Positions 21,464 through 42,692 of a DNA stretch of 56,239 bases are shown in pieces. Position numbers and translations under genes: made by a program. This stretch comes from a virus. Its lineage: Duplodnaviria; Caudoviricetes. Under the pieces are notes generated by a model. That model saw only the letters and a list, made by a program, of their open reading frames with translations, did no database searches and was not told where the DNA came from. The stretch's first letter is position 1. The number at the start of each line of letters is the position of its first letter. The stretch is from positions 1-56,239 of the IMG/VR virus record IMGVR_UViG_3300044711_000029, one strand, 5' to 3'.

Positions 21464-21479
21464 ACCCCTACCCCGGCAG
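21464..21479. repeat. 16-bp direct repeat, copy 2; contains the integrase stop codon
   Basis: Identical to 20548-20563. Confidence 0.9.
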
Positions 21480-22352
21480 ACGCCACGGGATGAATAGGGT
21501 CGGGTTGTCGCGCTGGGTGAACCGTTTGTCCTCGTAGCTCCGCTCGCTCGTCTCGCTGCTGCTGTGGCCTAAGAGCGGCGAATGCTGGCCAGTCATCCGC
21601 TTGTAATGCGTGTTGTGCGTTACCCTCAGCGAATGCGTTTTATGCTTGCGGTCCACCGGCAAGCCGGCATCTTTGAGAATTCGGTTCAGCAGCGTGTAGT
21701 AGCTCTCCTCGCACTTATCCCACGGCCAGAGGTGGACGCGGCGGGGGTTGGCGGCGATGCAATCGCGCAGCAGCGGCACGGTCTCAGGCCAGAGCGGATA
21801 GCAGGCGCCCTTGATGCCGCCTTTGCGGACGGCTGGCGGTATCATGCAAATCCGCGCGTCTAAATCCACCCAGGCGATTTCAACGGCCAAGGCTGCGGAC
21901 TTCCTCTCCGACGTGTTGAACACAAACGCGAAGAATGAACTGCACCAAATGTCCGCCGGGATGCCTGCAATCAATCCCCGCTCTTTGAAGCACGAGCGGA
22001 AGAATCGTTGCAACTCCTCTTCCGAGAATGCCAGCGGCATCGACTCAGGCACTCGCGGCTTGGTGAACGTCGGGAACTTATCGACAATCCGCCGCTTGGC
22101 GAGCCACGTCCAAAGGCTTTGAATTCTCCCCGCCCGTTCTTTCACGGTGATGGCGGCAAGCCCGTCATCTAACCGCCTGGACATCCAGCAGGTTATCGAA
22201 TCGTCGCCCAGGTCATCGGTCGTTGGGTCACGGCCAAGGAACCGGCCGTAATCCCGCAGAGCAATAGAGTATTGATAACGTGTTGGCTCGTGAATTCTGA
22301 GATTCAGCGGCCAGTAGAGCCGCTCGCAAAGCGAGAGCAGGGTTTCGGACAT
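21468..22352 (-). CDS. int: tyrosine recombinase / phage integrase (short, XerC-like architecture)
   Basis: Catalytic residues R (TSERKS), K (RKGG), HSLR, LGH and Y (ERSY); SAM-like N-domain. Confidence 0.85.
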   Translation of the reverse strand: MSETLLSLCERLYWPLNLRIHEPTRYQYSIALRDYGRFLGRDPTTDDLGDDSITCWMSRRLDDGLAAITVKERAGRIQSLWTWLAKRRIVDKFPTFTKPRVPESMPLAFSEEELQRFFRSCFKERGLIAGIPADIWCSSFFAFVFNTSERKSAALAVEIAWVDLDARICMIPPAVRKGGIKGACYPLWPETVPLLRDCIAANPRRVHLWPWDKCEESYYTLLNRILKDAGLPVDRKHKTHSLRVTHNTHYKRMTGQHSPLLGHSSSETSERSYEDKRFTQRDNPTLFIPWRLPG

Positions 22353-29411: not shown

Positions 29412-29588
29412 GTGAACGACATCTTCGACTACCACGAACGCCAGGCCCGCGAGTCCATCTGGGAGAAGCGGATGGAGAGGGAGGCGAGGTTTGAGCCGCC
29501 GACGCAGGAGGTGGTGGAGAAGGCGCTGGAGGTGAATGGGGTGGTGGTGCCTGTCGAGGCTGAGAAGCCAGAAGGGGAAAGATCGTGA
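29412..29588 (+). CDS. 58-aa hypothetical protein
   Basis: GTG after GGAGGG, GTGA overlap with next gene; below ORF-track cutoff. Confidence 0.5.
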   Translation: MNDIFDYHERQARESIWEKRMEREARFEPPTQEVVEKALEVNGVVVPVEAEKPEGERS

Positions 29589-30487
29589 GTGAGTTGATTG
29601 TCGCACCTGAAAACGAAATGGCCATCGCGCCTGTCCACGAGCAGTTGCCGTCCACGGACCTGCGCCATTCCATGATGATGATGCCGGTGGAGCAGCAGAA
29701 TCAATTTCTCGTCCTCTACAAGGCGCGCCGCGACAACTTCCGCTCGTGGCTGATGTCCCAGCTTATAGAAGGCGTCCATTACGGCGTCGTTCCAGGCTGC
29801 GAACCAAAGAGCGAGCAACGCGCCGACGGAACCTACTACGGCGTTTGGAATGGAAAGAAGAAGGCCCTCGACTGGCATCACGAAAGGCAGTGGACCCCCA
29901 AGCCATCGCTCTATGCCGCCGGGGCTGATTTCATTTGTGACATTCTCGGCGTGCGGGATGAATATGAAACGGACGCCGTTGGTTGGCAGCAGATGGGATC
30001 AAAGGCTGGAAACGCGGTTGTGAAGTGCAAGTTATTCAGCCGGGCAACCGGCGACCTTATCGGCGAATCGCTGGGGGCGTACTACCACCAGTATGACCCG
30101 AACAACGCCTTGAAGATGGCTAGCAAGTGCGCAAAAGTTGGGGCGGTAATTAACGCTTACGACCTTCGCGACCTGTTCACACAGGATGCCCCAGCACAGC
30201 CGCCTCACGATAACCCAGCCCCTAACCCAGCGGCCCCGCAAGAGCAGCCGCGGGCCAAGCGGCAGGCTCCAGCCATCACCAAGGAGCAATGCGCCGCCCT
30301 GCTCGTGGCGTGGCGTCCGCACAATCCAGAGGCGTCTGGCGACGTGAAGAAGTGGAACGAGCGGTTCTACGCCTGGGCCGCCAAGACGGCCGGCAGGCAG
30401 TTCGACGCCAGCAAGTCAGCCAACTGGACACAAGACGATTTCAACGCCTGCGATGCGGCCCTGTCAGTTATGGAGGGCTGCAAATGA
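29585..30487 (+). CDS. putative single-strand annealing (recombination) protein
   Basis: HYGVVPG...KPSLY..GA, N.ALKMA.K.A...A...LFTQD; directly upstream of an exonuclease. Confidence 0.65.
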   Translation: MSELIVAPENEMAIAPVHEQLPSTDLRHSMMMMPVEQQNQFLVLYKARRDNFRSWLMSQLIEGVHYGVVPGCEPKSEQRADGTYYGVWNGKKKALDWHHERQWTPKPSLYAAGADFICDILGVRDEYETDAVGWQQMGSKAGNAVVKCKLFSRATGDLIGESLGAYYHQYDPNNALKMASKCAKVGAVINAYDLRDLFTQDAPAQPPHDNPAPNPAAPQEQPRAKRQAPAITKEQCAALLVAWRPHNPEASGDVKKWNERFYAWAAKTAGRQFDASKSANWTQDDFNACDAALSVMEGCK

Positions 30488-31536
30488 GGAAGGTAACGCC
30501 AGCCGAATACCGCGAGGCCCTCAAGTCGTTCGTTGACCAGCCGGACGGTGGTTTGTACGTGGTGGACCGCAGCACCTTGCAGCACTGGGCAGACTGCCCG
30601 TGGCAGGCCAAGGCAATCGCCGATGGCCGCTGCCGAACCGTTGGAATCGCCGCAGAAGCTGGCTCAGCGGTTCATCCCGCCTTCTCGGCCGTCACTATCG
30701 AATGGATTGCAAGCCAAGGCGCCATGTCCCCCGTGGACCTGCGGCAGGACGTAGAGCACCATCTGCGGAACTCCCGGCCAGACATTCAGCCAGAAGCCCT
30801 CGCAGCAGCCATGCCGTCGCTGTGGCAGTGGGCCAAGCTGATTAGCTCTATTCACCCGGGTAACATCCTCGGATTTGACGGCGGGGAAGAATTGGACCCG
30901 CCCCGCTCTGGGCAACTGGCCTACGACATCGTTGACCTGGGGGTACGAATCACGGGCGAGCTGGACCTGATTTGCTCGACTGAATCTTTGGAAGTGCTGG
31001 ACGTTTACGACTACAAGACCGGCTGGAAAACGCATGAGGTTGGCGACGTTGCCAGCAGCTTTCAATTTCAGTTCTACGCTGTGCTGGCCCTGGAAACGTA
31101 CCCCAAGGTTGAATGCGTCCGGTTCAAGGTGTTTGACACGCGGGCCAACAGGCTGACCTATGCCGTGCCGTTCACGCGGGCACGCAAGCACGATTACATG
31201 GTTCGCATCCGCTCGGCAATCGAGTCGATGAGGACGCACAACCACGACAACCCGCCGACGTGGCCCGTGCTGGAAAAATGCTCCATCTGCCCCGCTGCGG
31301 CCCTCTGCCCGGTGGCAGATGAGGCGATTGCCGACCTCGCAGCAGACCCGCCTGGATTCGTCAAAAAGATGGTGGCGGTTGGCGCTCGCCTGGACGCCAT
31401 GCAAGCCCTTGCCGCGAAGTACGTTGACGCCAGCGGGCAGGACATCGAGTGCGGGGAACTGCGGTTCGGCCGCAACAAGCCGAAGTCAACTAAGAAATCA
31501 CCTGCCACGCTTTACGAACTCTCTATCAAGGAATGA
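30484..31536 (+). CDS. PD-(D/E)XK exonuclease, RecB/Cas4-like
   Basis: CP..., G..VH, GELDL, DYKTG, Q..FY and C..CP....CP motifs. Confidence 0.85.
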   Translation: MRKVTPAEYREALKSFVDQPDGGLYVVDRSTLQHWADCPWQAKAIADGRCRTVGIAAEAGSAVHPAFSAVTIEWIASQGAMSPVDLRQDVEHHLRNSRPDIQPEALAAAMPSLWQWAKLISSIHPGNILGFDGGEELDPPRSGQLAYDIVDLGVRITGELDLICSTESLEVLDVYDYKTGWKTHEVGDVASSFQFQFYAVLALETYPKVECVRFKVFDTRANRLTYAVPFTRARKHDYMVRIRSAIESMRTHNHDNPPTWPVLEKCSICPAAALCPVADEAIADLAADPPGFVKKMVAVGARLDAMQALAAKYVDASGQDIECGELRFGRNKPKSTKKSPATLYELSIKE

Positions 31537-31757: not shown

Positions 31758-31887
31758 CAGTTCGGCGACTTGTCGTCGCCAACAAGGGGCCCCGGCCGTT
31801 GTTGTCCCTATGGCGTCTGGGGCTTTTGAGATAACCATGCCAGGCAGCTTCCGACGATTGCTGAGAAACCTGCGAAAGGTAGATGAA

Positions 31888-32064
31888 ATGAAGGACCGCC
31901 ACATTTGCACCGCTGCCGATCCCTGGACGCCTGAGAAGGGCACGCGGGCCGAGCATCCCGACGCGAAGGAAGTCAGCGACCGGGACTACGGCGGTGGAGA
32001 GTATTGCGTCACGTACAAATGCCCGCACTGCGGCAAGGTTTTTGAAGTGGAGATAGCCCAATGA
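31888..32064 (+). CDS. small zinc-ribbon protein
   Basis: C...H.DA...YKCPHCG. Confidence 0.65.
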   Translation: MKDRHICTAADPWTPEKGTRAEHPDAKEVSDRDYGGGEYCVTYKCPHCGKVFEVEIAQ

Positions 32065-32303
32065 ACGAGACTCTCCAAGCCTTTGCACGGCAGACATTGA
32101 AGGACGGTCTGGCGCAACTGGGTGACGGCGAGCACCGCCTATTCAAGCTGATGTACGGCCGCAATGGTGGCAAGCGAAGCGTGGAGGACGCTTTGGCAAT
32201 GCCAATCGACGCCGTTGTGGATGAAGTCAGGCCCGAACAGCTCGATTGGGCAATGCGGCAAGTAGATGGCTCGTTGTATCAAAAAGCGGAGATATCCCAA
32301 TGA
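32061..32303 (+). CDS. hypothetical protein (cassette flanked by 16-bp repeats)
   Basis: ATGA coupling at both ends. Confidence 0.65.
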   Translation: MNETLQAFARQTLKDGLAQLGDGEHRLFKLMYGRNGGKRSVEDALAMPIDAVVDEVRPEQLDWAMRQVDGSLYQKAEISQ

Positions 32304-32593
32304 GCTTTGAAGACAACCCCGCCGAGGAAGACCCCCATGGCGAATGTCGGCATGAAATCCACGCTCTGCAAACCAAGTTGGCGGCGCTGGTCGCGGCTGT
32401 TCAAGGCTATTGCGGCCTAGATGGTCGCGATGGCTCAAGGGCGATTCAGGCATGGTTTTCGGAATACCACAATCAGGACGACCAGATGCCCCACCCTAAT
32501 ACGTGCGACGAATGCGGCGAACTGGCTGTTGGTTACGACGCGGACAATGGGGCATCGCTGTGTGCCGCTCACTACAGAGCAAAGGGTAAGTGA
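32300..32593 (+). CDS. hypothetical protein with CxxC...CxxH
   Basis: GGAG RBS, coupling. Confidence 0.6.
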   Translation: MSFEDNPAEEDPHGECRHEIHALQTKLAALVAAVQGYCGLDGRDGSRAIQAWFSEYHNQDDQMPHPNTCDECGELAVGYDADNGASLCAAHYRAKGK

Positions 32594-32809
32594 ATGAACG
32601 CCTCCACCCTCTCCACCTTCATCGACGCCCACCGCCGCATCCACGGCCACTTGCCAAAGCTACGGGAACTCGTCGAGCAGGCAGACGGAAAACTGCTTAA
32701 TGTATTGATGTGCCTGATGGAGTTGGACGACGCGCGGAAGGACGAACTGCGGCAGATGGCGAGGGCGGATAGGGCGGAACAGAAGAGAAGGCAAGGGGGG
32801 CGGACATGA
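32594..32809 (+). CDS. hypothetical protein
   Basis: Contiguous ORF. Confidence 0.55.
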   Translation: MNASTLSTFIDAHRRIHGHLPKLRELVEQADGKLLNVLMCLMELDDARKDELRQMARADRAEQKRRQGGRT

Positions 32810-33051
32810 ATGAATCTCTATTGAGCCTCGTTCGCAGCGACGGCCCGGCGACGGTCGAAGAATTCTTCAACGACTGCCGGATTCTGAGATATGCCTGCAA
32901 AAGACCGGACCTGCCGAAGGACGCTGGTGAGCTGTTGGAGCAGATGCTTGAACTGGAACAGGCTGGCAGCGTGCGGCTGACGGAGAAGGGGTGGGAGGCG
33001 GTTTACGCCGAGAGGAAACCGGAGCCAACGGAAAGGCGGTTATTCGCGTGA
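32806..33051 (+). CDS. hypothetical protein
   Basis: Coupled ORF. Confidence 0.55.
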   Translation: MNESLLSLVRSDGPATVEEFFNDCRILRYACKRPDLPKDAGELLEQMLELEQAGSVRLTEKGWEAVYAERKPEPTERRLFA

Positions 33052-33440
33052 ACCGTAAACTCGTTTACCGCTATCACTGTGACTTCTGCAAGAAGGCAAA
33101 TTGCTCCGCGCCTTCGATTGCCAAGCACGAGCGAGGTTGCACGGCTAACCCTGCCCGCGTTTGCGGCATGTGCAAGGCTGTTGGTCATCCACAGATGCTA
33201 CTGACTGACATCTTAAAGGCGCTTAGGCATGACGTAGCCACGACAGAGCCCGACGAGGACGGCCTGCGATCGTGTAAGCCTGGCTTGGCATGGGAAGCGG
33301 CAAACTGCTGTCCGGCGTGCCTCTTAGCAGCAATTCGGCAAATCAAAAAGACAGATGACCTGCAATTCGATTGGGACTTCAAGGCGGCGAAGCAGAGGTT
33401 TTGGAACGGTCACAACCGAGATACAGCAGGAGTGTATTGA
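33048..33440 (+). CDS. Cys-rich zinc-binding phage protein
   Basis: CDFC..HE..C..NP.R.C.MC...CPAC.LAA.RQ. Confidence 0.7.
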   Translation: MNRKLVYRYHCDFCKKANCSAPSIAKHERGCTANPARVCGMCKAVGHPQMLLTDILKALRHDVATTEPDEDGLRSCKPGLAWEAANCCPACLLAAIRQIKKTDDLQFDWDFKAAKQRFWNGHNRDTAGVY

Positions 33441-33527
33441 CATTTAACCGCCGGCCGCGTGGCTGGCAAACCCCGTCCGCACTTCCTAAGCGGGACTTGC
33501 GGCGGGGATTTTACACAAGGGGGTTGC

Positions 33528-33764
33528 GTGGCAGATATTTTGAAATCATCCGAGGTCAGGGTGTTTGGGGAAATCCGCCCAGACTCCCTCTATCGTGCCA
33601 CGGAGGCTTGTCGAAGGCTCGGATGGAGTGCTACGGCCTATCGAACTGCCAGACGCAGAGGGTTGGCCGTAAAGTATTTTGCCAATCGCGCCTATGTAAC
33701 CGGGAAAGCTATTTCTGATTTCATAGCGACCGAGGGCAGAGACACGAAGAATTCACGCGGGTAG
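33528..33764 (+). CDS. excisionase-like HTH DNA-binding protein
   Basis: LY...EA.RRLGW......ARRRGL; AAGGGG RBS. Confidence 0.6.
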   Translation: MADILKSSEVRVFGEIRPDSLYRATEACRRLGWSATAYRTARRRGLAVKYFANRAYVTGKAISDFIATEGRDTKNSRG

Positions 33765-33811
33765 ATGCTTGGGTTTTAGGATTCGAGACGGCAGGGAAAC
33801 GGATTGAGCCG

Positions 33812-34600
33812 ATGGCGCGGTCACGTAACATCAAGCCGGGGTTTTTCACCAACGAGGAGTTGGCAAGGCTGCCGGACGCTGCCCAGCTTCTATTCGCTGG
33901 GCTGTGGACGATTGCAGACCGCGATGGCCGTTTAGAGGACCGGCCGGCCCGCATCAACGCCCAAATCTTCCCCTACAAAAAACGAAACGTGGACCGTCTT
34001 TTAGATGACCTGGCCGGGGCAAGATTCATAGTCAGGTACGAGTCTGCTGGAGGCCGGTACATCCAGGTTTTGAACTTCTTACGGCATCAGACTCCACACG
34101 TAAAAGAACCTGCTAGTACCATTCCTGAACCGGACTTGTCTCAGTCTTTAATCAGTCCTGTCTGTCTTGCCACATATAGAGGGAATCAGGATGAGGGAAA
34201 GGGGAATCAGGAATCAGGAGGTGCAGCCAAGTTTTCGCCGCCGACCGTCGCTGAGGTTGCGGCCCACTGCGCCGAGCGTGCCAACGGCATCGACGCTGAG
34301 GCATTCGTGGCCCATTACGCATCGAAGGGCTGGCGTGTCGGCCGCAGTCCGATGAAGGATTGGAAATCCGCAGTTACGACCTGGGAGAAAAACAAAGGCC
34401 AGTTCAGCGGTGTAAACGGCACGAACGGAACGCCGCCACGGAATCCCCAAGCCGACCAAGCCAAGCGAGCGGAGGCGATTCGGAAGGCCGCCAATGATGC
34501 GGCGGCTAACGACATCATCAAGGCCGGGTTGAGGCTCGGCAAGTCCGACGAAGAAACCGATTTAGAGTTAACGGCCAGTGGGCTGACTCGACCAACGTAA
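33812..34600 (+). CDS. replication initiator / replisome organizer
   Basis: MAR.RNIKPGFF.NE.L, LW.IADRDGRL N-domain; F.PPT..EV...F..HY...GW.VG..PMKDWK.AV.TWE C-domain. Confidence 0.85.
   Translation: MARSRNIKPGFFTNEELARLPDAAQLLFAGLWTIADRDGRLEDRPARINAQIFPYKKRNVDRLLDDLAGARFIVRYESAGGRYIQVLNFLRHQTPHVKEPASTIPEPDLSQSLISPVCLATYRGNQDEGKGNQESGGAAKFSPPTVAEVAAHCAERANGIDAEAFVAHYASKGWRVGRSPMKDWKSAVTTWEKNKGQFSGVNGTNGTPPRNPQADQAKRAEAIRKAANDAAANDIIKAGLRLGKSDEETDLELTASGLTRPT
34140..34218. repeat. candidate origin iterons inside initiator gene
   Basis: GGAATCAGG at 34182, 34203 and 34210; TCAGTC twice; located in the interdomain linker as in lambdoid origins. Confidence 0.45.
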
Positions 34601-34630
34601 CCAGACCCGCCGGCTGATTAGGAGGCAACG

Positions 34631-35110
34631 ATGACCACCACAGAACTATTCGACTGCGGCCCTCGCGTCCCGCTTCCCAGCATGGGCAAGCGCAAAACCT
34701 ATTGCACGCCCGACCTGCCAGGCACCGGCCCGGAAGGCGAGACGTGCGGAACATGCCGCTACTTGGTTCGCAGGCGCAACAGCGAGGGCCGCGGCAACAC
34801 GCATCCCAAATGCGGCAAGATGCAGCACCGCTGGACGCACGGCGCCGCTACAGACATCCGCGTGCGTTGGCCGGCTTGCTCGCATTGGGACACGCTGTTG
34901 CCGGATTGGTGGCAGGACAAAAATCACGGCGACTCGGCAGAAGCCTTTGAGGTTGCCGCCGACTGGTGGCTTGATAGGGGCGAGGATGCTAAGGCGGACC
35001 TGATGCGGCGATGTGCTGTCAAGTTACGGGAGCGAGACGCCCGCCTGCAAGAGCAGGCGCGGCAGATTGTGCGGAAGTTCGACGCGAAGCACCTGGAGTC
35101 CCGCCCATGA
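34631..35110 (+). CDS. Cys-rich protein with C-terminal TIGR02996-like motif
   Basis: GTGPEGETCGTC...KC...W.HG..TDI....AC..W; AFEVAADWWLDRG. Confidence 0.7.
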   Translation: MTTTELFDCGPRVPLPSMGKRKTYCTPDLPGTGPEGETCGTCRYLVRRRNSEGRGNTHPKCGKMQHRWTHGAATDIRVRWPACSHWDTLLPDWWQDKNHGDSAEAFEVAADWWLDRGEDAKADLMRRCAVKLRERDARLQEQARQIVRKFDAKHLESRP

Positions 35111-35334
35111 CCACCAACCCAGCGGCAACGTGCATATCCAACCGTTACATCATCATCGACGACCCTGAATCCCCTGGAAGATTCCTAGTCGTCGGCCATC
35201 ACAAACTAATGGGCATGGACAGGCGCGGTAGCCACGCGACGCTTACGCAAGCTGAGCGGTCGCTTTGGATTTGCCGGCGCGTGCCACAAGCGAAGCGAAA
35301 ATACCCGGAGGCGATTGCGGAGTTTTATTGGTAA
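35107..35334 (+). CDS. hypothetical protein
   Basis: GGAG RBS, ATGA coupling. Confidence 0.55.
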   Translation: MTTNPAATCISNRYIIIDDPESPGRFLVVGHHKLMGMDRRGSHATLTQAERSLWICRRVPQAKRKYPEAIAEFYW

Positions 35335-35368
35335 TGACCAACCCACAACCCAGCGGCGAGGAGGGGTA

Positions 35369-35680
35369 ATGAAGGCGACTGACACTGAACTGTGGGTGGA
35401 ATACGATGAATATGGCAGGGCCGTTATTAGGCCCGATTCCGTTCTTTACGGTGCGCGCCCTGAAGATGTTGGCAAGCAATCCGCTCCAGGCTGGAAGGTG
35501 GCAATGATCGACCCGCAGGACGGACGTGTGATGCACTTACGCATGATTTTCTTTCGCGAGATAGATGCCAACATGGCCAAGGCTGCACTAGAGCGCGCTG
35601 GTCTTGGCTGTGTGCGCGAATTGATTAAGACGACAGCCGACGAGAGGGAACGCATCATGGCCGAGGCCCTTCAGTGGTAG
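35369..35680 (+). CDS. hypothetical protein, paralog of 50282-50584
   Basis: F.RE.DA..A..AL..AGL...LQW shared. Confidence 0.7.
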   Translation: MKATDTELWVEYDEYGRAVIRPDSVLYGARPEDVGKQSAPGWKVAMIDPQDGRVMHLRMIFFREIDANMAKAALERAGLGCVRELIKTTADERERIMAEALQW

Positions 35681-35688
35681 GAGCGAAG

Positions 35689-36120
35689 ATGCAAGAGCCA
35701 ATCGTATTCACGGTGCCAGCAATTCCCGTAGCCCAACCGCGGCCTAAAGCAACCTCGTTTAACGGCCACGCGCGAGTGTATGAAGCCGCCAAGAGTCATC
35801 CAGTACATGCGTTCAAAGCCAGTGTCCGCGCTGCCGCCGCTGCTGCTTACGACGGCCCGCCGCTGGAAATGGCGCTGGCGTTGACAGCCGTGTTTGTGAT
35901 GCCTCGCCCCGGTTCAATGCTATGGAAGAAGCGGCCGATGCCACGCGCCCACTATTGCGTCTCGCGGAACGATTGGGACAACCTAGGAAAATCCGTAAGC
36001 GATGCTTTGAATGGCCTTGTCTGGCGCGATGATGGGCAAATTGTTGTTGCGAGAGTCGAGCGGTGGATAGCGTCCGGTGACGAGCAGCCGCACGTCGAGA
36101 TAGAAATCAAACCCGCATAG
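35689..36120 (+). CDS. rusA: RusA-family Holliday junction resolvase
   Basis: PV.QPRP, DWDNLGKSVSDALNG.VW.DD.QIV. Confidence 0.92.
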   Translation: MQEPIVFTVPAIPVAQPRPKATSFNGHARVYEAAKSHPVHAFKASVRAAAAAAYDGPPLEMALALTAVFVMPRPGSMLWKKRPMPRAHYCVSRNDWDNLGKSVSDALNGLVWRDDGQIVVARVERWIASGDEQPHVEIEIKPA

Positions 36121-36129
36121 GAGCCCCCG

Positions 36130-36816
36130 ATGAGTGAAGTGAAACTAGGACAACTACTTAATGCCTCTGCTAAACGTGACGCAATTCACATTGCCATCGC
36201 GCCGGTGATTGCCAGCGAGAAATTGAACCCTGGGCAGCGAATTGGTTTTGATGAGCCTGGCTGCGAGAAGGTACGCGGTCGCCTGGACGGCATCGGTATT
36301 GTTGATCCGTTCCTGACCGAGCCTATCGTGAAGGGCCAGCGGTTCTACATGCTGTTGATGCCCAACACAATCACGTCACTGCGCCACGAGTGGACGCATC
36401 CGGCGTTCATCGGCGCCAGGAGTAATACGCCTGTGCCGAGCTTCGACGAGCGGCGGGCGTTCCTGGCGGAAATTGCCCTAGCCCCCGATGACGAATTGCC
36501 GCACAAGATTTACGCCGACTGGCTGGAGAAGCACGGGGAGATTGAGGAAGCAAAGAAACATCGGGAGTGGTCGCACGACAAGGCGTCTGCGGAAGATTGG
36601 CTGCGACACTATGCCAAGCGAGTTTGCCCTTACGACGATGAGAACGCTTACGAGCGGTTTATGGATCGTGTGAAAGAAGGAGATATTTTTTATCACGGCA
36701 AACACTGCCACTATTCCGGCGAGGTAGAAGATGCGGATGAATTGTATCGGCGGCTTTCCATCGTGCTTGGCCGACAAGTCGGTGAGGGCAGTTTCACTTT
36801 TTCATGCTCATGCTAA
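36130..36816 (+). CDS. phage protein with inserted TIGR02996-like repeat-companion domain
   Basis: RDAIHIA..GIVDPFL..TSLRH.W.HP.F; ERRAFLAEI...PDD.....IYADWLE.HG; ends FSCSC. Confidence 0.75.
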   Translation: MSEVKLGQLLNASAKRDAIHIAIAPVIASEKLNPGQRIGFDEPGCEKVRGRLDGIGIVDPFLTEPIVKGQRFYMLLMPNTITSLRHEWTHPAFIGARSNTPVPSFDERRAFLAEIALAPDDELPHKIYADWLEKHGEIEEAKKHREWSHDKASAEDWLRHYAKRVCPYDDENAYERFMDRVKEGDIFYHGKHCHYSGEVEDADELYRRLSIVLGRQVGEGSFTFSCSC

Positions 36817-36827
36817 AGGAGCCCTCG

Positions 36828-38159
36828 ATGACGACCCAAAAGCTACCGATGGTTGGCAATTCGATATGCATGATTACGCAAAGCTCGTCCACTCCCGAAC
36901 ATGACGGAGAATGGTTCGTGTGGCGTGGCAACGGCGACACACTGAGTCATCAAGGAACATGGGATCCAAGCTCAGACAAGATCGACTATTGGCCGACCCT
37001 CGCCGGCGCCGAGGCCGCGATACGCCAGTTTGCAGAGAGAGAGCAGGCAGCCGGGACACAGGCAGATCAGCTTTCGAGTCCGCCTGTTCAGTCGCCAGAC
37101 GCTCGGCTGCCTGCCTGCTCTTCTGCGGAATGGAAAGACGCTGATGACAGCCCGCCTGAGTATGGCGTACTGGTTCGTGTGCGTTGCCATGACGGAGTTG
37201 AATTCGACGCCTGCCGTGCGACAAGTGACGGTAAGTACCTCAGAGAGAATTGGGGGACATTCAGTGGCGTCAGGTATTGGAAGCCGTTAGCCGCCCCCAC
37301 CCCCGCTCCTACCTGCTCTGCTGATGACGGTCTCGACAAGATCGACGCTCGCAATGAGCGAACCGATAGAGATTACGAAGCAATGCTAGCCACCCCCGCT
37401 CCTGCCGCCGAGCCGCACAACTTCACCCTCAACCCGACAATCCAGCGGCAAGTGCCAGGGCGGTACGTGACGGATGATGAGCCTGCCGACGTGCCAGCCG
37501 GGAAGGTTGGCGAGAAGGACAATCTATTTTGGCCGCCAGCCGATGATATTGAAACACTGCCCTACGAAGTTCGACACGGCAGAACAAGAGAGTACGTGCT
37601 GATGTCAGCTAGGCAATTGGCGGAATTGCTCACCACCACCCCCTGCCCCCGGTGCGAGGAGTTGGCGGCGGAGAAAGAGTCATGGCAGGCGGACGCAAAG
37701 CTGATCTGGGACAAGCTGCAAGCACTCGCCCCGTGGTGCGAATCAAATGACATGGAATGGATCGACGAAATAATCTGCGGCTTCTCCGGCGTCGAACAGA
37801 ACATCGAGCAGCTAACCGCCGAGTGCGAGCGGCTGCGGGGTGGTAAGTGGACCGACGATGAACTAGACGCCCTTGGCGATAAACTGTCTTGTGCCTGGAA
37901 ACTGATTGCTGACAAGAGGCAAGAGAACCTCGACGCCGCACTATCCAAACTCCTCGCTGCCGAGGCGGAACTAGCGGAACTGCGCGTAAAACTCTCCGCC
38001 CAAATCGACGCCCAACTCGCCTTCGTCCGCGACTTCGACGCCGCTATTCGCGCCAAGTGCCAACACCACGGCATCGAGTTGCCTGTGATTGAGGGGCCTA
38101 TTGACCAGGCGATTGGGCAATGGTTGGCGGAACTGCGGGGGAGAGTACCAAATGCCTAA
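36828..38159 (+). CDS. mosaic multi-module protein (includes DUF551-like segment and coiled coil)
   Basis: W.D....PP....V.V...V.YW.PL segment; repeated TPAP linkers; C-terminal coiled coil. Confidence 0.65.
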   Translation: MTTQKLPMVGNSICMITQSSSTPEHDGEWFVWRGNGDTLSHQGTWDPSSDKIDYWPTLAGAEAAIRQFAEREQAAGTQADQLSSPPVQSPDARLPACSSAEWKDADDSPPEYGVLVRVRCHDGVEFDACRATSDGKYLRENWGTFSGVRYWKPLAAPTPAPTCSADDGLDKIDARNERTDRDYEAMLATPAPAAEPHNFTLNPTIQRQVPGRYVTDDEPADVPAGKVGEKDNLFWPPADDIETLPYEVRHGRTREYVLMSARQLAELLTTTPCPRCEELAAEKESWQADAKLIWDKLQALAPWCESNDMEWIDEIICGFSGVEQNIEQLTAECERLRGGKWTDDELDALGDKLSCAWKLIADKRQENLDAALSKLLAAEAELAELRVKLSAQIDAQLAFVRDFDAAIRAKCQHHGIELPVIEGPIDQAIGQWLAELRGRVPNA

Positions 38160-38334
38160 GAAAGGCCAGCCACGCTGCAAGAAGTGCGGATACTGCAAGT
38201 GGACGTGCTTGAAGATGACCGCCACGACGGCACACATTGCGTGTCAAAACTGCGGGAATCAGACCATTACAAAATCCAAGAGGGCGATGCGAGACTTCGA
38301 CGAACGCGAGCGGCAGTTTCACTATCGCTACTAG
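38152..38334 (+). CDS. small zinc-ribbon protein
   Basis: CKKC...CQNC. Confidence 0.55.
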   Translation: MPKKGQPRCKKCGYCKWTCLKMTATTAHIACQNCGNQTITKSKRAMRDFDERERQFHYRY

Positions 38335-38373
38335 CCGCAGTCGATCCAATCTTTGCCGCGAAGGAGGTGGGGG

Positions 38374-38655
38374 GTGATACTCATTTTGAATGATGAATTC
38401 ATCGAAGCGGAACCAATCACTCCGGCTTACAGCCATCCAATGCCGCTAGGCAGCTATCGGCACGTTGCCGGTGGTTCGGCCGTGGTTAGCTGCCCGCAGT
38501 GCGGCAAATATTTCTACTTCAAGCACGAGATGCACGAGATTGTTCGTCTAGGTAATCACGGCGTAGTGCGGTTCGTTGAATGTCCGCGTTGCGATTGGTA
38601 CGGCACGCTGGCTTTACTTGCGTGGTTTAATAGCCGCGAAGGAGGTGGAGGGTGA
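38374..38655 (+). CDS. zinc-ribbon protein (cassette flanked by 23-bp repeats)
   Basis: CPQC...CPRC; AAGGAGGT RBS with GTG start. Confidence 0.65.
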   Translation: MILILNDEFIEAEPITPAYSHPMPLGSYRHVAGGSAVVSCPQCGKYFYFKHEMHEIVRLGNHGVVRFVECPRCDWYGTLALLAWFNSREGGGG

Positions 38656-39191
38656 GTGCGTTATTTGAAACCACGTCGCACGTCCACCGTTCAGCCGAGA
38701 TTAGTGAGTGTGGCCGCTATCGCTGGTGGCTGCGGCGCTCGTGGCAGCTTTGGGACGGCCAAGGGCTGCACGTCCAGGGCAAAGGTGTCTGCTGCTTTGT
38801 GATGCTCAACCCAAGCACAGCGGACGGGATGCAGGATGATCCGACGATCCGGCGGTGCATCGGCTTCGCGCGAGACTGGGGCTACAACACGCTGAGCGTT
38901 CGTAATTTATTCCCGTGGCGGGCGACGGACCCGAAGGAATTGAAAAATCCAAACGTGGACGTGTTCGGCGGGGACCGAGGCGAATCGGAATTGCTTGCGG
39001 CCTGCACTGCTGATTTCGTCCTGGCAGCATGGGGCGGCGATGTTCCTTTTGGCCGCGGCGAGAGAGCCGTCAAGTTGTTTCAGCATCACTTTCCTGGCAA
39101 GCCACTTCACTGCCTTGGAAAAACAAAAAGTGGCAATCCACGGCACCCGCTGTACGTAAAGGCGTCGGCGGTTCCAATCCCGTTTCCGTAA
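38652..39191 (+). CDS. DUF1643 family protein
   Basis: YR..L.R.W, MLNPSTAD...DDPTIRRC..FA, NLF..RAT.P, AWG, G.PRHPLY. Confidence 0.9.
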   Translation: MSALFETTSHVHRSAEISECGRYRWWLRRSWQLWDGQGLHVQGKGVCCFVMLNPSTADGMQDDPTIRRCIGFARDWGYNTLSVRNLFPWRATDPKELKNPNVDVFGGDRGESELLAACTADFVLAAWGGDVPFGRGERAVKLFQHHFPGKPLHCLGKTKSGNPRHPLYVKASAVPIPFP

Positions 39192-39207
39192 CCCAAGAAG
39201 GAATCCC

Positions 39208-39621
39208 ATGCGAAAACTAGCCCTATTTTTGCTCCTCGCCTTTGCCGCCCCAGTCGCCGCCCAAGACCCAGCGTACCTGCTCTGGCAATACTACGAGTCC
39301 GATGGCGACCCCGGCGAGCCGAACATCCTCTACGTACTGCGTCACTCGCCCGACCATCCGCGGTTCGTTGAACCTGGTAATGACTACATCGGTGCCGAGT
39401 TCACCTACCTATTCAACGGCGTCCCCAACGGTGAGTGGTACAACGATGCCGGCTGGTGCAAGTTTCAGTTCACGACGATTCCTGGCGTGCAGGGCGGAGG
39501 GCGAGTCGTTGGCTTCGGCGATGACTTGGCGGTACTGGCTCCGTGGGCTGTTGGGCTGCCGGATAGATACGCGCCGCCACTTGTGACGACGGCGACGAGC
39601 ACAAAGCGGAAGGGGCGGTAA
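39208..39621 (+). CDS. secreted protein (Sec signal peptide)
   Basis: MRKLALFLLLAFAAPVAA-Q. Confidence 0.7.
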   Translation: MRKLALFLLLAFAAPVAAQDPAYLLWQYYESDGDPGEPNILYVLRHSPDHPRFVEPGNDYIGAEFTYLFNGVPNGEWYNDAGWCKFQFTTIPGVQGGGRVVGFGDDLAVLAPWAVGLPDRYAPPLVTTATSTKRKGR

Positions 39622-39626
39622 AGTCT

Positions 39627-39941
39627 GTGAGCAACCGATTTATCCAACAAGAAATCGAAACGCACGAGGCATTGCTAAGCCGCGCGGCAGATGTTGTCGA
39701 GCAACTTGGGATGCCGACCGCTGCGGAGCATGTTCGCTGGCAAATCGAGTCCAAGGCGATGGAATACTTGGAGATGGCTATTGAGGCGGGCGTTGAAGCC
39801 GAGAAGGAAAAGATGGCAATCCAGTTTGCGATTCGGCGACGGCTGGAGCGAATGGAAGATCAGATTGCCTACCAGATTGCCTTAGCTTCAGTCGGGACTT
39901 CCGGCTGGACGACGCAGGGGTTTAGAACTTTTTATGGATAG
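39627..39941 (+). CDS. hypothetical protein
   Basis: Helical ORF between repeated boundaries. Confidence 0.6.
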   Translation: MSNRFIQQEIETHEALLSRAADVVEQLGMPTAAEHVRWQIESKAMEYLEMAIEAGVEAEKEKMAIQFAIRRRLERMEDQIAYQIALASVGTSGWTTQGFRTFYG

Positions 39942-39980
39942 TGACGGCAACGAGCACGCGAAAGAAAGGGGAAGTGAGCC

Positions 39981-40247
39981 ATGAGCAATAGCAAGCGGAC
40001 GAAGCGACACCCAATCCTGTTAGGCAAGGCGGAAGTTATTGACCCGCCTATTCGGCATGACGTGAAAATCATGCTCGAAAACGAAGGGCTGTATATCGCC
40101 ACAGCGCCCATCCTAGGCCGCGCGGAGGCTCCGCTCGTTTCGATGGGCGGAAAGATTTACGCGCTGGATCAGGGCAAGGAGTTGCCGCCAGAGTCGTTTA
40201 TCGAGGGGTCTCTGTTCTATGGCCCTTATCGAGCACCGACGAAGTAG
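39981..40247 (+). CDS. hypothetical protein
   Basis: AAGGGG RBS. Confidence 0.6.
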   Translation: MSNSKRTKRHPILLGKAEVIDPPIRHDVKIMLENEGLYIATAPILGRAEAPLVSMGGKIYALDQGKELPPESFIEGSLFYGPYRAPTK

Positions 40248-40260
40248 AAAGCGAGCGAGC

Positions 40261-40491
40261 ATGAGCAAGCGGCGAGACCTGAAGTTGAAATCCGGCTTGG
40301 CGAAAAGCTCGCTACTCCGTTACGCGAAGTCGCCGCTGCTGGAACGCACCGAAGATGGCGACAACACACCGATCTATTTTCACAACACGCGGTGTTCCAG
40401 TTTTTGCGACTATGCCTGCAATGGGTCGCATGGGACGGATATCGCCGAGGACATTGCAGCTTTGGAAAGCGAGGCCGAGCATGGCAAGTGA
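40261..40491 (+). CDS. small Cys/His protein
   Basis: H...C.SFCDYACN. Confidence 0.6.
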   Translation: MSKRRDLKLKSGLAKSSLLRYAKSPLLERTEDGDNTPIYFHNTRCSSFCDYACNGSHGTDIAEDIAALESEAEHGK

Positions 40492-40861
40492 CGAGATTAA
40501 AGCGGCGGCGGACTTTCTGCGTCCGTGTATGGACATGGATGAACCGCCAACCCTGGCATCGTCCACGGCTATTAAGGCGATGTGGTGGCTCAGCCGTGCC
40601 TACCTTGCCGAGCGCGACGACCAGCCAATCGCGGAGGAGTGGTTGCGGGGACTGGGGTTTAAGCAGGACGACGAGCGGCCGTTTTTGTGGATCAACGAAG
40701 GCGGGCCGCCGAAAGCTGGAGGCTTTGACCTGTGCATGTGGAACGACGGCGATTGCACGCTCGAAGACCCGGATAACAGCATCATCCTGAATCAATGCAA
40801 AACCCGCGGCGACCTCCTGCGCCTCCTGGCCGCCCTCGGAATCACCCCGGAGAAAACGTAA
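40481..40861 (+). CDS. hypothetical protein
   Basis: PI.EEWL..LGF...TRGDL.RL..ALGI. Confidence 0.65.
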   Translation: MASDEIKAAADFLRPCMDMDEPPTLASSTAIKAMWWLSRAYLAERDDQPIAEEWLRGLGFKQDDERPFLWINEGGPPKAGGFDLCMWNDGDCTLEDPDNSIILNQCKTRGDLLRLLAALGITPEKT

Positions 40862-41178
40862 TGGCAAAGCGTGATGGAGTTTTCAGGAAGTTCAACGTCA
40901 GCCGAACGGATGGCACTGACCAGAAGCCAGGCGACAAGCACTTCAACTGCGTCTATTTTGTGCTGGACATTTCGCATGACCGCTTTGCGGCTGCCGCTCT
41001 GCGGGCCTATGCCAAGGCGTGCCAAATCGAAATGCCGGAACTGGCGAAGGATGTAGCCGACCTCGCCACTGTCAACGAAATCGAAACTGGTGTCGCATCC
41101 GTGACGCCAAAACAATTCCCGCCAGCTTGCTACGGCCCGGTTGTCAAGATCGCGATGGAAACCAAACTCGGAGAGTAG
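40861..41178 (+). CDS. conserved phage hypothetical protein
   Basis: KF.V.RTDG...KH..C.YFVLD..HD..A.AAL.AYA. Confidence 0.75.
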   Translation: MAKRDGVFRKFNVSRTDGTDQKPGDKHFNCVYFVLDISHDRFAAAALRAYAKACQIEMPELAKDVADLATVNEIETGVASVTPKQFPPACYGPVVKIAMETKLGE

Positions 41179-41193
41179 CGATAGGAAAACCAA

Positions 41194-41370
41194 ATGGCAA
41201 AGCGTAAGAAGGTGGCAGCGGTGAAGACCGTCGCAGCGCTCAAGCGACAGAACGCGGCCCTGCTTCGTCTGGTGAGAGAATTAAAGCACAGGCTGTTGAC
41301 GGTCGATTTGGCTGCACGGAGCCATATGCAAACTATCCGCGATGCACTGAATGCCATTTGTCATATCTAG
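41194..41370 (+). CDS. 58-aa basic coiled-coil protein
   Basis: AGGA RBS, start duplicates that of 40861; below ORF-track cutoff. Confidence 0.55.
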   Translation: MAKRKKVAAVKTVAALKRQNAALLRLVRELKHRLLTVDLAARSHMQTIRDALNAICHI

Positions 41371-41397
41371 CCGCCGCCTGTTGAGGAGCAAACGCAA

Positions 41398-41649
41398 ATG
41401 AGCAAGCTGACCACCGCTGAAATTCTCGCCGAGTGCGAGCGGGTGATTGCGCTCGATTCTCTGCGTTCTATTGATCCGCATACTAGCCGTAATCCTGGCA
41501 TTACCCCAGGCGAGTTAGCCGAACTTGGGACGCTGTGTCTTGATCTCGCTCCCCGTCTTGCCCGGCTCGTCAAGCGGCTGGTGGAGGCCCTTAAGCCCTA
41601 TCCAACAACCCTAGAAGCCGCCCTGGCCGACGTGGAGATTTCAGAATGA
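41398..41649 (+). CDS. hypothetical protein
   Basis: GAGGAG RBS. Confidence 0.6.
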   Translation: MSKLTTAEILAECERVIALDSLRSIDPHTSRNPGITPGELAELGTLCLDLAPRLARLVKRLVEALKPYPTTLEAALADVEISE

Positions 41650-42053
41650 GCAAGCTGCTGACGCGGGAAGAATTGGAGTCTCTTACTGTCGCCTGGGATC
41701 GCGAACCACCTGGCGTTTGGTGCAACCGCGAAAAACGACTGGCGGCGATTGAGACCTCCCTGCACTACATAGCCGAGTCCCAACGGCTCGCGGCGGTGGT
41801 GGAGAGGGTGGAATCAAAGCTGCAATGGATTTCCGAGCACGCGAGTTGCGATTATCCGCATTCCAAGGACGACGCTGTTGACGTGACGTGCTATGAGTGG
41901 ACGTGGGGATTCATCGTCACGAAGGGAGATCATCCGTCGTTTTCTGAAGCCGTGGACTACGAGATGGCAAAAACACAAGAGCAGCGGCAAGCAGAGCAGC
42001 AATGGGTGAAGCGGACTTTCTTCCCAGTGCAAGCCGCCCTGAAAACGGAGTAA
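41646..42053 (+). CDS. hypothetical protein
   Basis: GGAG RBS, ATGA coupling. Confidence 0.6.
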   Translation: MSKLLTREELESLTVAWDREPPGVWCNREKRLAAIETSLHYIAESQRLAAVVERVESKLQWISEHASCDYPHSKDDAVDVTCYEWTWGFIVTKGDHPSFSEAVDYEMAKTQEQRQAEQQWVKRTFFPVQAALKTE

Positions 42054-42056
42054 GCG

Positions 42057-42440
42057 ATGCCTGCCGAATACTGGAATACGCTACGGAAGAAACTCAAAGC
42101 CCGCAACGGCTTGACGATGCTATTTGGAAGGGCGGCAATCCCAGGCACGTTCACCGCCGAGGCTTACCACGAAGATTGCCCGATGCCGCTATGCGTCGTA
42201 TGGTTTGGATTCTTCGGCTTGCAGGGCATTCAAATCCAAAACAGTTTCACGTTTGAGTATGTGCGCCGTGCTGGTCTTCGCAGCTTCATTCATGAGCAAA
42301 TGGTCAAGGCATATCCAGATCGGTACGTCCTTTCCGGGGCTGGAACCAAGAGCGGAGAGGCGTGGATGAAGGCTGTCGGCTACCGAAAGACAGCGGCAGG
42401 GTGGGAGTGGCATCCGAAGAAGACAACGAAAACGGAGTAA
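42057..42440 (+). CDS. GNAT-like acetyltransferase (putative)
   Basis: I.NSFT.EYVRRAGL (motif A-like) and T..G.AW...GY (motif B-like). Confidence 0.5.
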   Translation: MPAEYWNTLRKKLKARNGLTMLFGRAAIPGTFTAEAYHEDCPMPLCVVWFGFFGLQGIQIQNSFTFEYVRRAGLRSFIHEQMVKAYPDRYVLSGAGTKSGEAWMKAVGYRKTAAGWEWHPKKTTKTE

Positions 42441-42443
42441 CAG

Positions 42444-42692
42444 ATGGAAGCGAAGGAACGCAACAAACACGGGGGCCAGCGGAGCGTGAGGCGGGAGCGG
42501 GCGAAGTTCCGGCGGAAGTCGCGCCGGGATAGCCGCTCCCATCGTAAGCTCACGATCCGCAAGGGCGACAAGTTTTCGTTCCGCGGGATGGAGATGACAT
42601 TTATCGGCGGGACCGGCAAGTTGACGGCCGACGTGCTGACGCCGGAGCCGTACCGGCATGTGTTCGCGGCGAAACTGGAGGAAAGGTCGTAA
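42444..42692 (+). CDS. basic hypothetical protein
   Basis: GGAG RBS; Arg/Lys-rich. Confidence 0.5.
   Translation: MEAKERNKHGGQRSVRRERAKFRRKSRRDSRSHRKLTIRKGDKFSFRGMEMTFIGGTGKLTADVLTPEPYRHVFAAKLEERS

Follow-up and report, generated by a model that had tools for sequence, protein, structure and literature searches.

Of 27 consecutive gene junctions in this phage, 9 to 11 (approximately a third of neighbours) carry private initiation-region repeats of 12–33 nt, one copy preceding a small gene and a second copy preceding the next gene. We suggest that these are probably, though far from certainly, junction (target) duplications arising from the insertion or stacking of single genes at translation-initiation regions. 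The window, meaning the whole 56,239-nt stretch of DNA analysed, is that of an uncultured, temperate, siphovirus-like phage of soil origin, and its source record is a soil metagenome assembly (approximately 8–11x word depth) from a sample in which relatives co-occur. The repeats lie in a tightly packed early/accessory block (32–42.5 kb) that also carries a replication initiator, RusA and a DUF1643 gene, the remaining small genes being without known relatives. Gene starts were taken from a purpose-made simple caller. Context genes and repeat copies are as follows:

21468..22352, minus strand: the sole tyrosine recombinase, 10 kb from the array; 22.7 bits, below the Pfam cut-off of 27.1
29585..30487, + strand: probable Rad52/Sak-like single-strand annealing protein; context, outside the array
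30289..31536, + strand: PD-(D/E)XK exonuclease, annealase partner; real start probably downstream of the called start
35689..36120, + strand: RusA Holliday-junction resolvase, the anchor for control loci
38652..39191, + strand: DUF1643 gene, its GTG start supplied within pair 4 copy 2
32045..32064, + strand: pair 1 copy 1, AAGTGGAGATAGCCCAATGA; final codons of gene 31888–32064, RBS, ATGA stop/start overlap
32284..32303, + strand: pair 1 copy 2 (18/20 identical); end of enclosed gene 32061–32303 (80 aa) and start of gene 32300
35107..35126, + strand: pair 2 copy 1, ATGACCA..CAACCCAGCGGC; start and first codons of enclosed gene 35107–35334 (75 aa)
35334..35369, + strand: pair 2 copy 2 (12/12 plus 7/7, with a 4-nt indel); 11-codon remnant ORF MTNPQPSGEEG*, its end forming the RBS of gene 35369–35680
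36119..36133, + strand: pair 3 copy 1, AGGAGCCCCCGATGA; RBS and start of enclosed gene 36130–36816 (228 aa, phrog_11912)
36480..36494, + strand: pair 3 third copy; internal, out of frame, near residue 117 of gene 36130–36816
36817..36831, + strand: pair 3 copy 2 (14/15); RBS and start of gene 36828–38159
38355..38377, + strand: pair 4 copy 1, GCCGCGAAGGAGGTGGGGGGTGA; RBS and GTG start of enclosed gene 38374–38655 (93 aa)
38633..38655, + strand: pair 4 copy 2 (22/23 identical); end of the enclosed gene, RBS/GTG start of the DUF1643 gene
39588..39602, + strand: pair 5 copy 1 (14/15); inside the 3' end of gene 39208–39621
39943..39957, + strand: pair 5 copy 2; within the 39-nt spacer behind enclosed gene 39627–39941 (104 aa)
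40247..40277, + strand: pair 6 copy 1; RBS, ATG 40261 and first codons of enclosed gene 40261–40491
40465..40496, + strand: pair 6 copy 2; RBS, start and first codons of gene 40481–40861
40852..40872, + strand: pair 7 copy 1, GAAAACGTAATGGCAAAGCGT; stop/start overlap plus the MAKR codons, the first four of enclosed gene 40861–41178
41185..41205, + strand: pair 7 copy 2 (19/21 identical); RBS, start and MAKR of gene 41194–41370
41397..41409, + strand: pair 8 copy 1, AATGAGCAAGCTG; start and MSKL of enclosed gene 41398–41649
41645..41657, + strand: pair 8 copy 2 (13/13 identical); ATGA overlap, start and MSKL of gene 41646–42053
42041..42059, + strand: pair 9 copy 1, GAAAACGGAGTAAGCGATG; last codons (KTE*) of gene 41646–42053, RBS, start of enclosed gene 42057–42440
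42428..42446, + strand: pair 9 copy 2 (17/19 identical); KTE* end of the enclosed gene, RBS, start of gene 42444–42692
41615..41625 and 42031..42041, + strand: extra weak pair, AAGCCGCCCTG (11/11); 3' ends of consecutive genes, could be chance

All nine pairs named in the original prediction are present where it placed them, but it had missed two weaker ones, 41615/42031 and a second such pair at junctions 39981/40261. The repeated sequence takes in the stop or final codons of the preceding gene together with the RBS, the start codon and as many as five codons, and all copies are in register with a start codon except the third, internal copy of pair 3 (12/12 to copy 1 and 14/15 to copy 2). Both genes of pairs 7 and 8 open with identical four codons, both upstream genes of pairs 1 and 9 share identical terminal residues, and the ORF enclosed by pair 4 takes its last 7 codons and stop from copy 2. 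The looser likeness of pair 5 extends as far as the start at 39627, and pair 6, once the start of its enclosed gene had been moved from 40219 to the in-frame ATG at 40261, gives a gapped local alignment score of 18 (28/33 columns, 2 small gaps). Collapse of each pair would, as had been proposed, leave a working stop/RBS/start junction. In the gene at 36130–36816, which contains the third copy near residue 117, only residues 6–93 are matched by phrog_17232, a short PHROG family (profile length 115).

Gene boundaries between 31.8 and 42.7 kb were compared as 50-nt windows (-30..+20 around each gene start) by ungapped match. A score of at least 10 was reached by 9/27 adjacent start windows versus 1/351 non-adjacent ones (Mann-Whitney p = 2.5e-5), and the shuffled boundary order never attained the observed nine in 20,000 permutations (mean 0.72, maximum 5), in line with the predicted likeness of adjacent boundaries. 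Within the region no pair at lags 2 to 7 reached this score, and therefore each repeat encloses exactly one gene, as the original prediction held. With gapped scoring of wider windows (-60..+30), 11/27 adjacent pairs exceed the 99th percentile of scores among the 351 non-adjacent ones. A scan independent of gene calls (ungapped, +1/-2) recovered eight of the nine pairs at a score of at least 12, the ninth (40247/40465) requiring gaps; at this threshold it found 12 repeats 150–700 nt apart in the region (2.2 per 100 offsets) versus five over 5000 offsets of 1000–6000 nt (0.1 per 100). The excess of neighbour repeats is real, far above chance and limited to immediate neighbours. The proposed uniqueness of the pairs is borne out by the non-adjacent comparison, but not in full, several genes sharing the start ATGAGCAAG and pair 36119/36817 having its third copy at 36480.

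Enclosed genes and the genes next to them are unrelated, and adjacent proteins are not paralogues: BLASTP among the 29 region proteins gave no significant match for any adjacent pair, and likeness past residue 8 was seen in 0/7 window pairs and 0/27 control pairs. The G+C content of enclosed genes is slightly lower than that of the others (0.551 vs 0.580, p = 0.007; 10 vs 19 genes), the corresponding difference in G+C3 not being significant (p = 0.085). Junction spacers range from -61 to +47 nt; the junctions scanned are without promoter or terminator signal, inverted repeats are found at none of them, and known RNA families have no match in the window.

Neighbour repeats are general among phages at a low rate. 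Across 47 RusA-anchored control loci, 27/1034 adjacent pairs versus 17/12,158 non-adjacent pairs scored at least 12 (odds ratio 19, p = 2e-19), or 25/906 versus 14/10,954 once seven redundant loci were removed, and 24 additional loci gave 13/514 versus 20/6031. In phages carrying the same annealase family the rate is only the ordinary 2.5%, and the window is approximately tenfold denser in such repeats than other phages. Comparable private pairs are present in control loci L059 and L072, and one start region is chained across 3 to 4 genes in L013 and L059. Phage lambda has none among 50 adjacent pairs in the same test, while JBD44 has two pairs scoring at least 12, one of them at two adjacent genes that carry the annotation DUF551 (annotation only).

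In two pairs of control phages, to which the empty-site evidence belongs rather than to the window's nine pairs, one gene is present in one phage and missing from the other; such a repeat marks the exact limits of the difference, and the empty site has a single copy. Locus L052 has two copies of a 10-nt RBS core with an additional gene of 311 nt between them, where L051 has one copy, the two loci being otherwise 100% identical over 772 nt of right flank; L042 has an additional gene, 394 nt long, with GGTGAGATGATTAT on one side and GGTGACATGATTAT on the other, and this gene is absent from L043 and L044. When related control loci were screened by BLAST, a flanking repeat scoring at least 11 stood at only one of seven distinct indels, and the repeat-flanked route is therefore a minority one. 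Close relatives of the window phage were found in none of the collections searched. A co-occurring contig of approximately 87% identity (run X1) has 226 other letters in place of 40858–41382 (two genes), with breakpoints one base 5' of the upstream stop codon and at the RBS of gene 41398; the left one is at 40857, and of repeat 7 the relative has no more than the first 6 bases. The idea that genes enter and leave as single units with breakpoints at the repeats is supported by the exact empty sites of the control phages, but the sole variant seen in this lineage is a two-gene replacement rather than a one-gene collapse, and most control indels in the BLAST screen lack a flanking repeat of that score. 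Together, the non-random pairs, the lower G+C of the enclosed genes and the breaks of the relative contig at gene junctions speak for that idea in part.

It seems unlikely to us that the repeats were not made by insertion but are pre-existing, population-wide "linker" addresses that flank circulating genes and are shared with the recipient junction, ordinary or annealase-relaxed homologous recombination exchanging the single genes. The breaks of the relative contig would fit this, as would the probable annealase and the exonuclease encoded in the window, the chained start regions of L013 and L059, and the L051/L052 RBS core GAGGGAACGA, which precedes at least three successive genes and bounds the indel exactly. 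However, the window pairs are private (1/351 non-adjacent pairs at a score of at least 10), their exact runs of 12–16 nt are shorter than the minimal pairing segment of 23–27 bp given for Red-beta in the relevant passage of PMC3945230, and no second phage was found with any of the nine sequences, in one exact-match search with a nearby 37-mer that returned zero matches. More doubtful again is an active integrase-free cassette system, in which genes would excise as circles via their repeats and re-enter a matching junction. Direct repeats one gene apart, whose collapse leaves a working junction, have the geometry for it, and the passages on PeSL elements of T4-type phages in PMC2839356 document similar mini-circles; yet the sole tyrosine recombinase is distant and under the Pfam cut-off, the repeats themselves are very short, the spacers leave no space for attC, the junctions are without inverted repeat, and the predicted single-gene collapse or circle was absent among one run's contigs, which cannot show rare forms.

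There is a very slight chance that an assembly artefact joined strain variants chimerically at short shared words, given the word depth of the metagenome assembly and the relatives in the same sample. A second assembler's contigs, however, reproduce 31500–34752 and 34867–37322 with 0 to 1 differences, this independent coverage (31500–37322) taking in pairs 1 to 3 only; the repeats are under the usual k-mer length or mismatched within it, joining at a shared word leaves that word single rather than duplicated, and the same pattern occurs in at least 60 other records. Slighter still is the chance of decayed tandem gene duplications or of a shared regulatory site on neighbours (a translational repressor or antisense target): the JBD44 pair at DUF551-annotated genes could be read in this way, but protein similarity is lacking in every adjacent pair, a regulator would require a separate site per pair, and the window has no known RNA family match. 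A chance or general likeness of RBS and start regions, with the best pairs picked by the reader, was tested and rejected by the non-adjacent comparison and the permutations, and its probability is negligible; it is true that ATG and GGAG-like sites occur at all junctions and that several genes begin alike, but non-adjacent junctions of equal composition match in one case of 351.

Boundary or "linker" sequences of lambdoid phages were reportedly described by Clark et al. in 2001 (J Mol Biol 311:657). Like the window's repeats, these are short border sequences proposed as recombination points that spare genes, but they are shared among phages and among many junctions, whereas each window sequence is private to one neighbour pair. 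The linker idea is cited in Pope et al. (2011; PMC3029335), whose sections on mycobacteriophage insertions describe the extra gene 68 of Island3, the last 18 residues of which repeat those of the upstream gene (approximately 50 bp), and genes 43–46 of LRRHood, flanked by 29-bp direct repeats of which relatives have one copy. These have the same anatomy as window pairs 1, 5 and 9; however, the cases in those sections are isolated, have longer repeats and were found via relatives, whereas the window has 9 to 11 private pairs serially in 10.4 kb, mostly covering RBS and start and known without relatives.

Promoter-early stem-loop (PeSL) cassettes of T4-type phages, as presented in the relevant parts of Arbiol et al. 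(2010; PMC2839356), likewise place repeated short elements among small non-essential genes, with single-gene insertion, deletion and replacement, and possible mini-circles. PeSLs are, however, one intergenic promoter-plus-terminator family, whereas the window junctions are without such signals and it is the RBS and start themselves that are repeated, in a sequence that differs between pairs. Relaxed homologous recombination by Rad52-like phage recombinases acts, in the passages concerned of De Paepe et al. (2014; PMC3945230), on diverged homology of at least 100 bp; this phage fits that setting in being temperate, in the mosaic make-up of its early region and in encoding an annealase that is probably of Rad52 type, but the minimal pairing segment given there exceeds the window's exact runs. 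Integron arrays are similar in their serial, mostly promoterless single genes of one orientation, but the window is without IntI, attI, attC or common site, and the proposed integron-like array fails on integrase and attC.

We thus return to junction duplication, for which the repeats themselves, their start-codon register, the adjacency-only excess, the lack of paralogy, the low-rate generality and the exact empty sites elsewhere all argue. That the genes were gained, and are not simply poised for deletion, is our inference, as are the enzymology and any cause of the high density in the window. One small gene may have been slotted into an existing junction, which would duplicate that junction, or, just as plausibly, the resident gene may have been joined by a different occupant of its slot, stacked beside it, in either case by short-homology or illegitimate recombination, or by template switching, among co-infecting relatives. 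Only products in which newcomer and resident both retain a working RBS and start would survive, and it would therefore be the initiation region that ends up duplicated. The same repeats may afterwards permit precise gene loss.

All nine pairs of short direct repeats that the original prediction described, each bracketing a single gene with two copies of an RBS or start region, are present as described, and the observation is confirmed. Genes were called with a simple scorer of codon usage, RBS and start, and junctions were compared through 50-nt windows (-30 to +20 around each start) using the best ungapped local score (+1/-2). In the region that carries the pairs (~31.8-42.7 kb), a score of at least 10 was reached by 9/27 adjacent junction pairs but by only 1/351 non-adjacent ones; over the entire window the corresponding figures are 11/104 and 30/5356. 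When junction order was permuted 20,000 times, such neighbours averaged 0.72 and never numbered more than 5, whereas nine were observed. No junction pair of the region scored at least 10 at lags 2-7, and the likeness is therefore confined to immediate neighbours. A short-repeat scan made without gene calls agrees: it found 12 repeats scoring at least 12 at a spacing of 150-700 nt inside the region and just five over 5000 offsets at 1-6 kb, and with gapped scoring 11/27 adjacent pairs, including all nine, lay above the 99th percentile of the 351 non-adjacent pairs (one start was revised for this, ATG 40261, in frame with ORF 40219-40491, replacing 40219).

The window, which is the entire IMG/VR record of 56,239 bases with an estimated completeness of 74%, is classed by Pfam and PHROG scans as a temperate tailed phage, and the following features were assigned by them.

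Main annotated features of the window
1.4-8.7 kb: small and large terminase, portal and capsid (Pfam/PHROG)
21468-22352, minus strand: tyrosine recombinase, weak match (Pfam, 22.7 bits against a cut-off of 27.1)
Listed after the 21.5-22.4 kb recombinase: Cro/CI-type HTH, then Dam (Pfam/PHROG)
30.3-31.5 kb: PD-(D/E)XK exonuclease (Pfam/PHROG)
33.8-34.6 kb: replication initiator (Pfam/PHROG)
35.7-36.1 kb: RusA (Pfam/PHROG)
38.65-39.2 kb: DUF1643 protein (Pfam/PHROG)
47577-48212: Acb3 homologue of the anti-CBASS family, strong match (Pfam PF25187, E = 1.9e-46)

The early/accessory block comprises ~28 plus-strand genes in tight packing, with spacers of -61 to +47 nt, and most of them have no family match in Pfam or PHROG; seven unexplained ORFs returned only noise from Pfam at E up to 1, and an Rfam scan of the entire window gave zero matches. 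Elsewhere in the window, three methyltransferase genes are recognized by Pfam, at 45-1277 (N6_N4_Mtase), 9119-10588 (Methyltransf_24, located within the head/tail module) and 23314-24144 (Dam). Internal repetition is seen in three further genes: a DUF6745 gene (24452-25609) holds ~25 tandem 12-nt units at 24690-24990, translated as a four-residue repeat (G/D)QL(R/W/Q/L) over roughly residues 80-180; gene 26202-26867 carries a 6-nt tandem array GGCTTG/GGCTGG at 26687-26790 that encodes an alternating Ala/Gly and Trp run (AGAGAWAWAWAWAWAWAG...); and ORF 53750-54949 has several internal repeats at 264-276 nt spacing (53779-54495), which suggests an internally repeated, possibly tail-fibre-like protein.

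Repeat length varies from 12 to 33 nt across the pairs, and while the register of the start codon is kept in every one, the extent of the copied part differs. Pairs 1, 5 and 9 duplicate the last codons of the upstream gene together with the RBS and start, pairs 3 and 4 the RBS and start alone, and pairs 2, 6, 7 and 8 the start with at least the four first codons. Some details of pairs 2, 3 and 4 look like scars. In pair 4, with 22/23 positions identical, the second RBS/GTGA copy supplies the last seven codons and the stop of the enclosed ORF, and the second copy of pair 2 is an 11-codon ORF whose end contains the RBS of the gene that follows. A third copy of the pair 3 repeat (36480-36494) lies out of frame inside the enclosed gene 36130-36816 at about residue 117; phrog_17232, a 115-position profile, matches residues 6-93 only of this gene, which may be a fusion formed at an RBS/start junction. 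The proteins of adjacent genes are unrelated: neighbouring members of the 29 region proteins show zero significant similarity, and none of seven window pairs compared retains protein similarity past residue 8. The enclosed genes (n=10) have a G+C of 0.551 against 0.580 for the other 19 (p = 0.007), and for G+C3 the difference is not significant (p = 0.085).

The same footprint is found in other phages at a low rate. Phage early regions were assembled into two control sets and processed with the same gene caller and junction test at a threshold score of at least 12. Set 1 combined three DUF1643 loci with 45 from IMG/VR that have a RusA homologue as their anchor, and the 47/48 that exceed 6 kb entered the test; set 2 comprised 21 IMG/VR and three genome loci anchored on the annealase family of the window.

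Junction pairs scoring at least 12 in the control loci
Set 1, 47 loci: adjacent 27/1034 (2.6%), non-adjacent 17/12,158 (0.14%), odds ratio 19, p = 2e-19
Set 1 minus seven redundant loci, 40 loci: adjacent 25/906, non-adjacent 14/10,954, odds ratio 22, p = 5e-19
Set 2, 24 loci: adjacent 13/514, non-adjacent 20/6031, odds ratio 7.8, p = 5e-7

Neighbouring junctions in these 71 loci are thus 8- to 22-fold enriched for the footprint, and no paralogues were found among 27 control pairs. With automatic calls the window region gives 7/25 pairs scoring at least 12, about tenfold over the control rate (p = 6e-6), and the densest run of 27 junctions in any set 1 locus holds four such pairs against nine in the window. 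From these rates and this density we conclude that the phenomenon is general but rare, with the window as an extreme case. In the junction test lambda had 0/50 adjacent pairs and JBD44 2/64, and L059, a locus of set 2, reached a score of at least 10 in 5/32 pairs; L059 and another control locus, L072, have private pairs resembling those of the window. A related arrangement, one start region common to several consecutive genes, occurs in control locus L013 and in the phage represented by loci L051 and L052. In these uncultured phages, chains of three to four successive small genes with one common RBS/start were observed at L059 16505-17707, L013 14900-16280 and L051 3883/6539/6897.

Evidence from the lineage of the window itself comes from contigs. 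The only public run holding the region is a soil metagenome, kept as contigs, which is probably the source of the window. Independent contigs replicate 31500-37322 with 0 to 1 differences, and pairs 1-3 are therefore confirmed. A 1010-nt contig from a relative of ~87% identity matches 40624-40857 and 41383-41451, and between these stretches it carries 226 other letters instead of the 525 nt of the window, so that the stacked genes 40861-41178 and 41194-41370 are replaced. One breakpoint falls a single base ahead of the upstream stop codon and the other at the RBS of gene 41398, and junctions are therefore exchange points in this lineage. The event is a two-gene replacement rather than the one-gene collapse that was predicted. 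None of the contigs at 85% identity or more spans most of 37.3-43.5 kb, a hole that is uninformative. No close relative of the phage was found across the collections searched: the 32-44 kb stretch had 0 megablast matches among 50,697 phage records, IMG/VR searches with a 443-aa protein and with the exonuclease gave none, and the 443-aa protein had just two distant matches in a set of 5.8 billion proteins. The DUF1643 protein has relatives in three loci (56-66% amino acid identity), the closest RusA match is at 63%, and a metagenome scan with gene 40481-40858 returned four loci at 31-40%. An exact 37-mer that the window shares with the relative contig had no match in IMG/VR, and when 40 window proteins were run as tblastn queries on all loci, 0 homologues of the enclosed small genes were found.

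Gain or loss of a gene at such repeats can be followed in the control loci, where two clean presence/absence cases are evident among related phages. In L052 an extra gene of 311 nt is flanked on both sides by the RBS core GAGGGAACGA, of which L051 has a single copy, the right flank being 100% identical over 772 nt apart from the extra gene; the extra gene of L042, 394 nt long and bounded by GGTGAGATGATTAT and GGTGACATGATTAT, is absent from L043 and L044. Of the two marks of a junction-duplicating single-gene insertion as in Pope 2011, a gene flanked by a direct repeat of the junction is seen for 9-11 window pairs, and a single copy in relatives lacking the gene is seen in L052/L051 and L042/L043, in other phages only. 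A BLAST screen of related control loci yielded seven distinct indels, five with no flanking repeat above 7 and one with a repeat scoring 11; at the remaining one (L040 versus L024) the start regions are only loosely alike. As just 1/7 has a flanking repeat of at least 11, most indels arise by other routes.

The interpretation offered originally, an integron-like array lacking a common att site, is only partly supported, and its integron component fails. In integrons, each cassette is followed by attC, an imperfect inverted repeat of ~57-140 nt, for which spacers of -61 to +47 nt are too small; an inverted-repeat scan found three pairs, all intragenic and none at junctions, and no integrase (IntI) lies in or beside 32-42.5 kb (Pfam, 79 ORFs), the sole tyrosine recombinase being 10 kb away. 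Nor are the repeats target-site duplications of a transposon or IS, which would have a fixed length: repeat length varies, terminal inverted repeats are lacking and the Pfam/PHROG scans of the region show no transposase. PeSL shuffling is described as yielding mini-circles (PMC2839356). A PeSL combines a sigma-70 promoter with a terminator stem-loop, in one element family placed at many junctions. The array is not of this kind: promoter-like sites number 6 versus 4.4 +/- 1.9 in shuffles and terminator-like sites 8 versus 13.1 +/- 3.4, none of them at a repeated junction, and the window has no common element (1/351 non-adjacent pairs scoring at least 10).

Recombination functions encoded nearby were considered as well. 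ORF 29585-30487 is probably a Rad52/Sak-like annealase, as judged from an AF2 model (mean pLDDT 88.7) that matches RAD52 (Z 7.9, 98 residues aligned), Mgm101 (Z 7.3) and Sak (Z 6.5), middling scores given that dsRBDs equal them (Z 8.5) and that Z below 8 is common; Foldseek E-values are 0.03-0.1. Its family counts 866 cluster representatives at E up to 0.001, with a Pfam match in 0/44 members scanned, and may constitute an uncurated annealase family. The PD-(D/E)XK exonuclease follows directly downstream, an arrangement kept in 14/21 related viral loci. A genome scan with the alignment retrieved only three loci at 25-35%, in a Pirellula MAG (L056) and two Saccharibacteria MAGs (L057 and L058), too distant for a host call. 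The rate of junction repeats in the 24 annealase-family loci is ordinary and not raised, so the annealase has no explanatory power for the density in the window.

The most economical reading of the window is insertion or stacking at junctions followed by selection. Template switching between co-infecting relatives, or recombination that is illegitimate or relies on short homology, would place a small gene in a junction already present; just as well, an occupant competing for one slot could become stacked next to the resident gene. By either course, selection would retain only products with an RBS and start for both genes, that is, with the initiation region duplicated. The minimal pairing segment of Red-beta is quoted as 23-27 bp (PMC3945230), and the exact repeat runs in the window, at 12-16 nt, fall below it, so ordinary homologous exchange at the repeats should be inefficient. 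We think it unlikely that translation-initiation regions act more broadly as recombination addresses, in a general, integrase-free process of single-gene gain, stacking and shedding in temperate phages that would be hyperactive in the window. On this view its footprint is what is visible at ~2.5% of neighbouring junctions everywhere and at ~30-40% in the window phage, where hyperactivity could perhaps come from the annealase-exonuclease-RusA set or from a swarm of relatives that often co-infect.

A 'boundary sequence' proposal for lambdoid phages was reportedly made by Clark in 2001; such linkers would recur at the matching junction in different phages, and the one relative contig found for the window has its breaks at junctions. 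Single cases are also described in mycobacteriophages, in Island3 gp68 and in the 29-bp repeats of LRRHood (PMC3029335). In the literature outside subscription journals we found such cases only one at a time, and no account that describes or counts the footprint in general; what is new here is the serial, dense and pair-specific duplication of junctions, together with the evidence for its generality at a low rate. The origin of the joints in mosaic phage genomes is a long-standing dispute, in which one of two views described holds that random illegitimate joining is followed by selection (PMC3029335, PMC3945230). One route to such joints leaves a footprint that can be counted, the duplicated initiation region, which is present at one third of junctions in one phage; this opens the question to a simple survey of all phage genomes, and the bracketing repeats offer natural material for testing the precise loss and gain of genes at the bench.
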